Assembly: GCF_013167455.1 (NCBI RefSeq)
Contig: NZ_CP038328.1
DNA from: Escherichia coli O157:H7
GTDB lineage: Bacteria; Pseudomonadota; Gammaproteobacteria; Enterobacterales; Enterobacteriaceae
Reading direction: 5' to 3' (one strand)
DNA: 64,000 nucleotides
Made by a program: the position numbers and the translations under genes. Each line of letters begins with the position of its first letter. Position 1 is the stretch's first letter. The notes under the pieces are model-generated. The model made no database searches, was not told the DNA's origin, and saw nothing but the letters and a program-made list of their open reading frames with translations. Below are positions 53,341 to 59,892 of the stretch, one piece after another.

Positions 53341-56210
<2,870 letters not shown>

Positions 56211-56215
56211 ACACT

Positions 56216-56345
56216 GCCGGATGCGGCACAAGTGCCTTATCCGGCCTACAGGCCGGCAATAGTTGTAGGCCTGATAAGACGCGACAGCGTCGCATCAGGC
56301 ATTGATTGCCGGATGCGGCACGAGCGCCTTATCCGGCCTACGGGT
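56216..56345. repeat. REP/BIME cluster between rhaA and rhaD
   Basis: Three REP units (gccggatgcggcacaagtgccttatccggcctac; gtaggcctgataagacgcgacagcgtcgcatcaggc; gccggatgcggcacgagcgccttatccggcctac). Confidence 0.85.
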
Positions 56346-56384
56346 CGTGCATCTGACAACACCGAATTTACAGGAACACAGAAC

Positions 56385-57218: not shown

Positions 57219-57533
57219 ATGATCCGCAAAGCCTTTGTCATGCAGGTAAACCCCGACGCCCACGAAGAGTATCAGCGTCGGCATAATCCCATCTGGCCGG
57301 AACTGGAAGCAGTGTTGAAATCTCACGGTGCGCATAACTACGCCATTTACCTCGACAAAGCGCGTAATCTGCTGTTTGCCACGGTAGAGATTGAATCTGA
57401 AGAACGGTGGAATGCGGTAGCCAGCACTGAAATCTGCCAACGTTGGTGGAAATATATGACCGATGTTATGCCCGCTAACCCGGATAACAGCCCGGTGAGT
57501 AGCGAGCTGCAAGAAGTGTTTTACCTGCCTTAA
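57219..57533 (+). CDS. rhaM: L-rhamnose mutarotase
   Basis: 104-aa [49 protein letters not shown]... Confidence 0.95.
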
Positions 57534-57573
57534 TGAGTTGCGGTGCCGGAAAATATCCAGCACCGCGACTTCA

Positions 57574-58968
57574 TCAGAAGAAGTATTTAAAGCGAACGCG
57601 TGCGCCGTAACGGTCATCAGTATCATCACCGTGTTTTTTATCGCCGTCGCTATCCAGAATGGAGTAATACGTCCCGAGGTAAATATTAAAGTTCTCCATA
57701 TCCATCACGTTAGCGAACTGATAAGACGCATGAATGGTGTGAATGGTGTACGTCCCTTCATCATCAATGCAGCAGTCGTTATCACAAACTACACCGCTGA
57801 ATTCATCAATCTTATTGTGCGCGTAGATATAACCGAGCTCGAAACGTTTCCACAGCGCGTTAATCCCGGCAGTGAAATCTTTCTCATTATTAGCATCTAA
57901 ATAGGCGGTATTTAGATTAACCACAATGCCATTGTCCGGATCCGTTTTCAGGCCGTTCCAGGTCATGCTCATACCATAGCCGGTACGATCGGACTGATCG
58001 ACAAAATTACCCTTGCTATCGGTATAACCATAAGCATTATTTACCACGTTCGCTTCCATCGCTGCGGAAACGGTGAATTCTTCCGTCGGCGACCAGGCAA
58101 TTACTGGGCGCAGATAAGCAACATTTTTCTGCTGCTCCATATCGCGTCCATGATAATTACCGTCATTATATAAAGATGTTCCGTCTTCAAGTAACGTGTT
58201 TAATTCAAAATACCAGTTATCGAGTTGTTTGCTGACGAGGAAATTACCGCCAGCGTTAGAGCGCCCGCGGCCCTCTTTCATCATATAGATATAACCGCTG
58301 CCATCGTCATAAAGATCGTTCGCAGTATTACCGGAATGTTCAACAAAGGTATCCTGATTCAATGGGAACATATCGTAGGCTTCAAAACGGCCTACTTTGA
58401 CCTTCCAGTCGTTTTCTTTGCCAAAGAAGAATACCGCATCATCGATATTTACTGAACCGTGCATATCACCCAGCGGTTGTGCGGAGAACCCGGCGAAATA
58501 ACCGTTGTCCATCTTTCGCATACCGTCAAAACCTAACAGAATACGACCATTGAGATTCCACTGTTCATTAGTGGGATCGCTATTCACATCAGCGTTGGTC
58601 ATTGCCAGCAGGCCATGATTACTTTCCGCATCCATATTAAATTCTACGTCGCCGTAGATTTTTAAATCGCCATAACCTGAAAGCAAAAGATTAGGTGAGG
58701 TGGCATTTTTCTTTGCAGATTCCGCCGTTGCCTGTCCATTTACCGGCGTATTGCCCTGAGCGGCCTTAATTTCGCGGATCTCAGCGGCTTGTTGTGTCTG
58801 CAGCTGTTTAACCTGGCTCTCTGCTTTTGCCGCCCGCATTTCTGCCGCTTCCAGGCGTTCTTCCAGCAATGCCATGCGTTGTTCCAGCATTAAATGCTGT
58901 GTTTTTGCCATACCGGTACTACATGCCAATAATAAACCGATGGCTAAAGATAATGTCGATTTTTTCAT
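57574..58968 (-). CDS. Putative outer-membrane carbohydrate-selective porin with N-terminal coiled-coil extension
   Basis: 464-aa ORF; signal peptide MKKSTLSLAIGLLLACSTGMA; coiled-coil-like segment LEQRMALLEERLEAAEMRAAKAESQVKQLQTQQAAEIREIKAAQ; Gly/Tyr/Asn-rich beta-strand-like body; C-terminal ...RFKYFF typical of beta-barrel OMPs. Not at this position in K-12 as I recall. Confidence 0.65.
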   Translation of the reverse strand: MKKSTLSLAIGLLLACSTGMAKTQHLMLEQRMALLEERLEAAEMRAAKAESQVKQLQTQQAAEIREIKAAQGNTPVNGQATAESAKKNATSPNLLLSGYGDLKIYGDVEFNMDAESNHGLLAMTNADVNSDPTNEQWNLNGRILLGFDGMRKMDNGYFAGFSAQPLGDMHGSVNIDDAVFFFGKENDWKVKVGRFEAYDMFPLNQDTFVEHSGNTANDLYDDGSGYIYMMKEGRGRSNAGGNFLVSKQLDNWYFELNTLLEDGTSLYNDGNYHGRDMEQQKNVAYLRPVIAWSPTEEFTVSAAMEANVVNNAYGYTDSKGNFVDQSDRTGYGMSMTWNGLKTDPDNGIVVNLNTAYLDANNEKDFTAGINALWKRFELGYIYAHNKIDEFSGVVCDNDCCIDDEGTYTIHTIHASYQFANVMDMENFNIYLGTYYSILDSDGDKKHGDDTDDRYGARVRFKYFF

Positions 58969-59445
58969 TATTTACGTTCCCTGAAATAAAGGAGACCCTA
59001 CGCTTTCCAAAAGGAATACGTATATAGAGAAATATAAGGTGTGCACTTTCGAATTTTTAATCCAACTTCAGCAGGCCGATGGATAGTATCCCGCCGCATA
59101 ATATGAGTAAATCCGCTGATTTCCTGGAACGTGAGGAATATAACAATAGTGCCGTTTTTAACTAAATATCGTAAAAAATATTAGATATGATTCAAGCTGG
59201 CTCATAAGCCACAAATATAAATAACGTTTAGACAAATTATCTGAGACATTTAAACATTCACAAAATCATTAAATAATAACTCTTTATTCACAAGATTTAT
59301 TTTACCTACTAATATGTGCCTTACGCCGCAAAATTTATCCTTCACTCTGCTTTATATTGTCACGACTTCACGACATATCCGCGCTCATCACAAACCCGCC
59401 CCGCTATTACAATTAACTGAAATATTTTTTCATGGAGTCCGATTA

Positions 59446-59892
59446 ATGGCAGCTCTTACTGCAAGCTGTATTGACCTGAATATTCAGGGCAATGGCGCTT
59501 ATTCCGTTCTGAAGCAGTTGGCGACAATGGCGTTACAAAACGGTTTTATCACCGACTCACACCAGTTCCTGCAAACCCTGCTGCTGCGCGAAAAAATGCA
59601 CTCCACCGGTTTTGGTTCTGGTGTCGCCGTGCCGCACGGTAAAAGCACCTGCGTTAAACAACCGTTCGTGTTATTCGCCCGCAAAGCGCAGGCTATTGAC
59701 TGGAAAGCCAGCGACGGCGAAGACGTCAATTGCTGGATCTGCCTCGGCGTACCGCAAAGTGGCGAAGAGGATCAGGTCAAAATCATCGGCACACTGTGTC
59801 GCAAAATTATTCACCAGGAATTTATTCATCAACTGCAACAGGGCGATACCGACCAGGTGCTTGCCTTGTTAAATCAAACCCTCAGCTCATAA
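59446..59892 (+). CDS. frvA: PTS fructose-like IIA component
   Basis: Start trimmed to MAALTASCIDLNIQGNGAYSVLKQLATMALQNGFITDSHQF (148 aa). Confidence 0.85.
   Translation: MAALTASCIDLNIQGNGAYSVLKQLATMALQNGFITDSHQFLQTLLLREKMHSTGFGSGVAVPHGKSTCVKQPFVLFARKAQAIDWKASDGEDVNCWICLGVPQSGEEDQVKIIGTLCRKIIHQEFIHQLQQGDTDQVLALLNQTLSS

Follow-up and report, generated by a model that had tools for sequence, protein, structure and literature searches.

The RafY family and the porin gene between rhaM and frvA

RafY, the porin of the raffinose cluster carried on Escherichia coli plasmids, is described, in the passages of PMC4809568 and PMC12987596 that cite the original work, as a glycoporin by which maltose, sucrose, and raffinose are taken up, and sources citing Andersen et al. 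(1998) report the plasmid protein as a large, non-specific general-diffusion channel that passes oligosaccharides. Chromosomal members of the family have also been reported. In Klebsiella pneumoniae, one such porin was enough by itself to improve competitive fitness in a community, an effect that the authors attribute to carbohydrate competition, and the family was described as larger-pored than OmpK35/36 (bioRxiv 10.64898/2026.03.29.715108); in Salmonella, the RafY homologue RS06040 is induced by lactulose, a disaccharide (PMC13304739). For E. coli O157:H7, a genome comparison of 2016 recorded rafRABD as absent and "a rafY homolog annotated as rafY2" as present (PMC4809568), and a study of 2026 found a complete rafABD operon in only 23 of 45 rafY-positive E. 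coli isolates (PMC12987596), which fits a widespread stand-alone chromosomal rafY copy. Here we describe rafY2 in a 64,000-nucleotide stretch of E. coli O157:H7 DNA (NZ_CP038328.1, assembly GCF_013167455.1), referred to as the window, in which a sequence-only reading had proposed an accessory sugar porin inserted between the rhamnose (rha) and frv loci. The gene is already known from Pfam, TCDB, RefSeq, and the O157 literature; the new points are modest and concern its apparently ancestral synteny, the finding that roughly half of E. coli carry it, the predicted 16-stranded fold, and a predicted binding site for the cAMP receptor protein (CRP).

The rafY2 coding sequence lies at positions 57,574–58,968 on the minus strand, where it is the lone long frame (464 amino acids plus stop, ATG start) in the list of open reading frames; its assignment to the RafY-family glycoporins draws on that list, on Pfam and RefSeq, and on its identity with plasmid RafY. 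The gene is placed between rhaM and frvA, convergent with the former and divergent from the latter (frvA start at 59,446 in RefSeq), and is a separate transcription unit with no operon common to either neighbour. The 477-bp interval between its start and frvA (58,969–59,445) has a G+C content of 0.33–0.38, compared with about 0.55 in the surroundings, and holds no credible entry in the list of open reading frames. Both the 464-residue minus-strand frame and the AT-rich, non-coding flank had been read correctly from the letters. The window matches E. coli O157 chromosomes with 100% identity over 2751 bp, and in these identical chromosomes RefSeq annotates the product as "carbohydrate porin" (WP_000749921.1), with rhaM on one side and frvA on the other.

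RafY2 belongs to the RafY glycoporins (Pfam PF16966, TC 1.B.15): residues 104–464 match Porin_8 ("Porin-like glycoporin RafY") over model positions 1–372 of 372 with E = 5.4e-152. The same Pfam search, at E ≤ 10, returned no match to LamB/ScrY (PF02264) or OprB (PF04966), and none to the general porins of the OmpF/OmpC type (Porin_1, PF00267); in NCBIfam, no family was found for the protein. The RafY family is small, with 233 clusters at E ≤ 1e-3, and mostly confined to Enterobacterales. The sequence-only reading had likened the protein to ScrY and OprB; what stands is the outer-membrane carbohydrate porin with a coiled-coil extension, whereas membership in the ScrY, LamB, or OprB families is not supported, as Pfam gives no match to them and the predicted barrel has 16 strands, not the 18 of ScrY and LamB. 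The closest homologues are chromosomal proteins of Citrobacter (84% identity) and Kluyvera (83%), with plasmid RafY further away. We consider it quite likely, as a joint statement, that rafY2 encodes a stand-alone chromosomal RafY glycoporin which forms a wide oligosaccharide channel, is activated by CRP, and is ancestral at the rha/frv locus.

Presence in E. coli and predicted regulation

With presence defined as at least 80% of the coding sequence covered, rafY2 was found in 2556 of 5426 complete E. coli genomes (47%), and the porin-frvA junction is intact in 1380 of the E. coli genomes. In K-12 NCM3722, where the sequence-only reading had expected no gene between rhaM and frvA, the two genes are only 300 bp apart and rafY2 is absent; the gene is known elsewhere, as "carbohydrate porin" or rafY2 (PMC4809568). 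In a blastn comparison with this strain, homology ends at 57,534, one base past the rhaM stop, and restarts at 59,258. The intervening 1723 bp (57,535–59,257), which contain a hairpin, rafY2, and the whole predicted promoter, are swapped in K-12 for 111 unrelated bp, for which no match turned up in the window or in the other loci compared. The remaining frvA upstream region (59,258–59,445, plus strand) is common to K-12 but diverged, with 89.9% identity in megablast over 59,313–59,700, reaching into the frvA coding sequence, and 75% in blastn over 218 bp ending just past the frvA start. Two further arrangements were found. Strain 4/1-1 (locus L004, 6770–7700) has kept the porin and its upstream region but has lost frvABXR and the 5' part of yiiG, the deletion breakpoint corresponding to window position 59,427, 19 bp before the frvA start codon; about 1200 of the 5426 complete genomes, a count inferred by subtraction, share this arrangement, with the porin kept and frvABXR lost. 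In HS30-1 (locus L053, 3001–3790), the porin was lost independently: IS1 abuts a 75-bp 3' porin remnant in the order rhaM, remnant, IS1, fdhD, and both frv and yiiG are gone.

Where the gene is present, it appears well preserved. Each of the 15 E. coli alleles sampled has an intact frame of 464 amino acids, with identities of 97–99%, and comparison of the O157 allele (57,574–58,968) with that of strain 4/1-1 (L004, 5375–6769; 95% nucleotide identity) gave a ratio of nonsynonymous to synonymous substitution (dN/dS) of 0.054 at a synonymous divergence (dS) of about 0.23. The low ratio and the intact alleles argue that rafY2 is maintained by selection where it is present. A dS of about 0.23 seems high for two E. 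coli strains, and together with the frvA upstream region, which is only 75–90% identical between the K-12 and O157 haplotypes, it points to old or imported haplotypes at this locus.

Upstream of the gene, an alignment of orthologues from seven genera (E. coli, Citrobacter, Kluyvera, Pseudocitrobacter, Superficieibacter, Enterobacter sp. ENT03, and isolate RIT691) contains one sharply conserved block, TGTTAnnnnnnCTCACG, between diverged flanks. A pattern search together with this alignment gives a candidate CRP-binding site, TGTTATATTCCTCACG, at 59,130–59,145 on the minus strand, which agrees with TGTGA-N6-TCACA at 8 of 10 core positions. The pattern TGTKAN6TCACR has a single further match in the 64-kb window, at 53,361 in the rhaS-rhaB intergenic region, where a CRP site of the rhaBAD promoter lies. 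Located 18 nt downstream of the CRP-like block, TTTAC and TAnnnT blocks are positionally conserved across the genera and would correspond to a putative weak sigma-70 promoter on the minus strand (59,083–59,111), with TTTACT as the -35 element (59,111–59,106), a 17-nt spacer, and TACTAT as the -10 element (59,088–59,083). This promoter scores 8 of 12, under the threshold of the promoter scan, and the scan itself gave 5 consensus sites compared with 5.4 expected from shuffled sequence, none of them at the conserved block; since nothing exceeded the shuffled level, the proposal is founded on cross-genus conservation. Hexamers below the scan threshold are typical of activator-dependent promoters, yet they are also a caveat. 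The CRP-like site is centred at about -62 relative to the predicted start, and class I geometry places it near -61.5, which suggests class I CRP-dependent, catabolite-controlled expression of rafY2. The weak promoter would thus probably be activated by cAMP-CRP bound near -62, turning the gene on when preferred sugars are scarce, and the site at 59,130–59,145 provides a concrete regulatory prediction.

From the predicted -10 element, a 5' untranslated leader of about 108 nt is expected on the minus strand (58,969–59,076), with a Shine-Dalgarno-like AGGGAA at 58,982–58,977, 8 nt upstream of the ATG. At the other end of the gene, inspection of the sequence between the convergent rhaM and rafY2 stop codons revealed a GC-rich hairpin at 57,540–57,566, GCGGTGCCGG-7 nt-CCAGCACCGC, a possible bidirectional terminator that the terminator scan did not call because a T-run is absent. 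An Rfam search of 57,400–59,600 gave only sub-threshold chance matches, and no known RNA element was found in the leader or at the hairpin.

The AT-rich promoter region and its weak hexamers, together with recurrent independent losses of the porin (in K-12-type strains and through the IS1-associated deletion in HS30-1, with its 75-bp remnant), would also suit a cryptic gene, all but silent under laboratory conditions, which matters mainly as a surface target for a phage, colicin, or immune receptor, hence its frequent loss; the K. pneumoniae relative, moreover, was beneficial only once a regulator mutation had raised its expression. We regard this explanation as unlikely, as the strong purifying selection and the intact frame of every sampled allele speak against it and the conserved upstream motif argues for regulated use. 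It is, however, compatible with a CRP-controlled glycoporin and not exclusive of it.

Predicted protein architecture and channel function

RafY2 begins with a Sec signal-peptide layout, MKKSTLSLAIGLLLACSTGMA followed by KTQ, in which the predicted signal peptidase I cleavage site (GMA/KT) closes a signal peptide of residues 1–21 (58,906–58,968, minus strand). The n-h-c layout is accompanied by an A/K junction kept across 22 homologues. A lipoprotein reading of the "LLAC" within the signal peptide was considered and rejected, since Cys16 is not conserved in homologues and thus forms no lipobox. The mature protein would carry an N-terminal periplasmic coiled coil (residues 25–70; 58,759–58,896, minus strand): over residues 22–72, 79% of the a/d positions are hydrophobic in one heptad register compared with 33–43% in the other six, AlphaFold2 models residues 28–70 as one long helix (predicted local distance difference test score, pLDDT, about 86), and Sugarporin_N (PF11471) matches residues 29–54 weakly (E = 0.32) and is recorded for several homologues. 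A low-complexity linker (residues 71–99; 58,672–58,758, minus strand), defined by the AlphaFold2 model and the alignments, joins the coiled coil to the barrel; residues 72–98 have pLDDT values below 50 and are modelled as disordered, and the linker is the most variable stretch of the protein both among E. coli alleles and among genera.

The remainder of the protein (residues 100–464; 57,577–58,671, minus strand) is predicted to form a 16-stranded beta-barrel ending in the C-terminal signal RFKYFF. AlphaFold2 was used because a PDB sequence search with RafY2 gave chance matches only (E about 0.5), with no sequence-related solved structure. The model, built from a 46-sequence family alignment (mean pLDDT 81, predicted template modelling score 0.71), shows a signal helix at the N-terminus and 16 long strands between residues 100 and 463, mostly with pLDDT above 90, in agreement with the 16 strands estimated for the RafY family in the TCDB table. 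The signal peptide, the heptad-like coiled coil, and the barrel-like body ending in F that had been read from the translation are all borne out by these analyses. Between strands 5 and 6, the model has a 45-residue loop (residues 195–240; 58,249–58,386, minus strand) which in the alignment holds the family's most conserved block, RFEAYDMFPLNQDTF...GYIYMMKEGRGRS; lying at the position of L3 in general porins, it would by analogy be the constriction loop that forms the pore eyelet.

When the model was compared with known structures, the top matches were 16-stranded trimeric porins, and the 18-stranded sugar porins scored lower. The structure comparison scores were 24.4 for OprP, 23.6 for Omp-Pst1, 23.3 for Omp32, 23.2 for PorB, 22.9 for DcaP, and 22.6 for VhChiP, followed by 19.8 for OprB, 18.1 for ScrY, and 18.0 for maltoporin (LamB); Foldseek agrees. 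On the basis of the model, the barrel appears to belong to the 16-stranded class, and the ScrY-like part would be the N-terminal extension.

The O157 allele differs from the others in one position of the barrel region. Codon 400 (57,769–57,771) encodes Cys in place of the Trp found in 14 of 14 other sampled E. coli alleles, and across the 22-sequence alignment this codon specifies Trp, Val, Ile, Phe, or Asp, never Cys. The W400C substitution comes directly after the Cys395/Cys399 pair that the family conserves, within a loop that joins barrel strands, and the exact O157 protein is found on at least 1000 contigs; the change is therefore fixed in the lineage.

From this architecture and from the described relatives we infer the channel properties, substrates, and oligomeric state of RafY2, as its control by CRP above. 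The protein, of about 48 kDa once mature, would be exported by means of its Sec signal peptide and would form a 16-stranded outer-membrane barrel with the strand 5–6 loop folded inward. Its N-terminal helix of about 45 residues would extend into the periplasm, where the helices of an oligomer probably assemble as a coiled coil, like those of ScrY and DcaP. If plasmid RafY, 78% identical, is taken as a guide, the channel is most likely a wide, non-saturable diffusion pore, which would admit di- to tetrasaccharides (raffinose-family sugars, sucrose, maltodextrins) that pass OmpF/OmpC poorly. Gene neighbourhoods in other genera are consistent with such substrates: among more distant family members, those of Cedecea, Pseudescherichia, Erwinia persicina, and a second Enterobacter copy have beside them genes for a RafB-like permease of the major facilitator superfamily (MFS; about 40% identical) and a glycoside hydrolase of family 32 (GH32), and those of Serratia and Photorhabdus have a GH32 gene alone, downstream. 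In Enterobacter sp. ENT03, the orthologue is directly followed by rafR-rafA-rafB. The porin of E. coli, Citrobacter, and Kluyvera has no raf, scr, or csc genes beside it; such neighbours belong to the gene's context and do not define the protein family.

The ScrY-like N-terminal coiled coil with its weak Sugarporin_N similarity, the association of the family with sucrose and raffinose loci, and the TCDB analysis, which puts the RafY family nearest to the sugar porin family, would instead fit a ScrY/LamB-like channel that is specific for sugars and binds them at an internal site ("greasy slide"). We hold such a channel to be improbable, given the strand number of the predicted barrel and the Pfam result described above.

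Probable ancestry at the rha/frv locus and relation to known systems

Orthologues of rafY2 occupy the same position in other genera. Three Citrobacter genomes and C. rodentium have the porin at the end of their rha cluster, convergent with rhaM; the cluster has the order rhaB-rhaA-rhaD, an Fe-alcohol dehydrogenase gene, and rhaM, and the porin-rhaM adjacency recurs in Citrobacter sp. R56, Pseudocitrobacter faecalis, Superficieibacter electus, and Kluyvera genomosp. 1. On the other side of the porin, Kluyvera has frvRXBA in the order frvRXBA, azlDC, a regulator, and the porin, and in Enterobacter sp. ENT03 and isolate RIT691 the porin lies beside frvA; in all, a position next to rhaM and/or frvA is kept in six other genera. 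The porin is also as diverged as its neighbours, with E. coli-Citrobacter identities of 84% for the porin, 84% for RhaB, 89% for RhaM, and 91% for RhaD. Since the same position is occupied in other genera and the divergence is like that of the neighbours, rafY2 is most simply read as ancestral at the rha/frv locus, and the K-12 state as a loss; the segment had earlier been taken as inserted, and the polarity of the event is thereby corrected to a loss in K-12 instead of a gain in O157. The gene would thus be ancestral in the Escherichia-Citrobacter-Kluyvera group, with about 47% of complete E. coli genomes keeping it and K-12-type strains having lost it.

This conserved placement, with rhaM adjacency kept across five genera and frvA adjacency across four, might suggest a substrate-specific glycoporin dedicated to rhamnose catabolism or to the Frv fructose-like phosphotransferase system, as the sequence-only reading had proposed. 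We find this very unlikely. The porin is convergent with rhaM and divergent from frvA in a transcription unit of its own; the roughly 1200 genomes that keep it after losing frvABXR make a dedicated frv link unlikely, and the Citrobacter porin has no adjacent frv operon. Control by RhaS/RhaR was looked for by comparing the porin upstream region with the rhaS-rhaB control region, and no word of 10 nt or longer is shared between them. RafY itself is reported, in the sources that cite its characterization, as non-specific. Rhamnose and fructose are monosaccharides and require no special porin.

A recent horizontal acquisition by O157-like strains, with insertion between rhaM and frvA and a raf plasmid as one possible source, would account for the absence from K-12, the G+C content of 45% compared with about 55% in the neighbours, the AT-rich flank, and the roughly 200 related porin copies on E. 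coli plasmids, but it is already largely refuted and in our view barely credible, because the same position is occupied in other genera, the junctions of the segment have no mobile-element genes or flanking repeats in the sequence or the RefSeq annotation, plasmid rafY is only 79% identical in nucleotides, and the RafY2 protein is nearer to that of Citrobacter (84%) than to plasmid RafY (77%). The low G+C content, considered on its own as a sign of recent transfer, was rejected: the porin lies 7–12 points under its neighbours in every genus, tracking host G+C content, and its composition is therefore a family trait.

The relation to the plasmid porin may run in the opposite direction. On the one plasmid examined, NZ_CP090323, the porin follows genes for a LacI-family regulator, an alpha-galactosidase, an MFS permease, and a GH32 hydrolase, and this is the rafR-rafA-rafB-rafD-rafY raffinose cluster. 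Its RafY is 78% identical to RafY2 over 450 amino acids, and E. coli RafY2 is its closest sampled chromosomal relative (77%, compared with at most 70% for other genera). In a crude pairwise estimate, dS between rafY2 and plasmid rafY is about 0.96 and unsaturated, whereas the comparison of rafY2 with the Citrobacter orthologue is saturated, which suggests that plasmid rafY derives from an Escherichia-like chromosomal rafY2 lineage. The dN/dS of 0.14 in the plasmid comparison, higher than the 0.05 among chromosomal orthologues, suggests that plasmid rafY has since evolved faster. A more far-reaching proposal, which we offer tentatively and regard as doubtful in its entirety, is that the rafY2 lineage is at once the progenitor of the plasmid porin and a CRP-switched, wide-bore "scavenging" porin held under a trade-off polymorphism. 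If this were true, the ancient presence/absence polymorphism, with alleles deeply diverged within E. coli (dS 0.23), would reflect a trade-off in which access to oligosaccharides in guts rich in plant matter is set against exposure to antibiotics, bile, or phages.

A raffinose cluster also occurs on the chromosome of Enterobacter sp. ENT03 (locus L013, 1541–12807), where frvRXBA are followed by the porin (72% identical), rafR, rafA, and rafB, the raffinose genes occupying the place of rhaM in other genera. This arrangement could be a source of the plasmid raf cluster or a parallel to it.

Several points weigh against the overall reading of rafY2 as a CRP-activated, oligosaccharide-passing porin ancestral at this locus. 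The literature read here describes no experiment on the expression, localisation, or channel activity of chromosomal RafY2, and the AlphaFold2 model is a monomer, the trimer and the coiled coil being predictions beyond it. The K-12 filler holds no porin remnant, and the direction of loss depends on outgroup synteny only. The left half of the CRP-like site reads TGTTA, with T replacing an important G, and both hexamers of the promoter are weak. The conserved upstream element could be bound by a factor other than CRP, and H-NS could silence the AT-rich upstream region. Finally, rafY2 has no dedicated catabolic partner at the locus. If the reading holds, the laboratory reference strain lacks a large-channel porin that about half of natural E. 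coli possess, among them O157:H7 and the many strains in which the frv operon has been lost as well. This is of concern to work on how oligosaccharides are used (raffinose-family sugars, plant and soy diets) and possibly to work on outer-membrane drug permeability.

The neighbouring rha genes vary as well. An Fe-dependent alcohol dehydrogenase gene (lactaldehyde reductase-like, 382 amino acids) lies between rhaD and rhaM in Citrobacter and Kluyvera, with four more open reading frames (334, 334, 561, and 328 amino acids) between it and rhaD in Kluyvera; "fucO" is annotated beside rhaM in E. coli O111:H8. The dehydrogenase gene is absent from the window and from K-12. The rhaA-rhaD spacer is 450 bp long in K-12 compared with 174 bp in the window, where a unit of about 133 bp (56,215–56,347) is single and matches NCM3722 at several positions offset by 92 bp; it looks like part of a variable tandem or repetitive extragenic palindromic (REP)-type repeat array. 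In rhaT, the rhamnose/H+ symporter gene (50,408–51,442, plus strand), an in-frame stop occurs at codon 51 (about 50,558–50,560), after 50 residues, and RefSeq annotates a rhaT pseudogene in an identical O157 genome. Poor rhamnose fermentation by O157 is exploited by selective media, and the rhaT stop may be related to it.

Compared with the described systems, RafY2 is most similar to RafY of the raffinose plasmid pRSD2 (Ulmke et al. 1997; Andersen et al. 1998), the founding member of the family, with which it shares the length of 464 amino acids, the layout of signal peptide, coiled coil, linker, and barrel, and a full-length match to PF16966; unlike plasmid rafY, however, rafY2 is chromosomal and stands alone, with no rafRABD adjoining it. 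K. pneumoniae GlyP (bioRxiv 10.64898/2026.03.29.715108) and Salmonella RS06040 (PMC13304739) are, like RafY2, chromosomal RafY-family porins, but GlyP is encoded in an operon under a dedicated repressor, GlyR, whereas rafY2 in E. coli has no adjoining regulator. ScrY and LamB are also carbohydrate-related outer-membrane channels, and RafY2 has a ScrY-like periplasmic coiled-coil extension (weak PF11471 match); their barrels are 18-stranded, in contrast to the predicted 16-stranded barrel of RafY2. With Pseudomonas OprB, the identity is only 11–14%, Pfam gives no OprB match, and the likeness is at the level of the fold only, whereas OmpF/OmpC, Omp-Pst1, PorB, OprP, and Acinetobacter baumannii DcaP show no detectable sequence relationship to RafY2.

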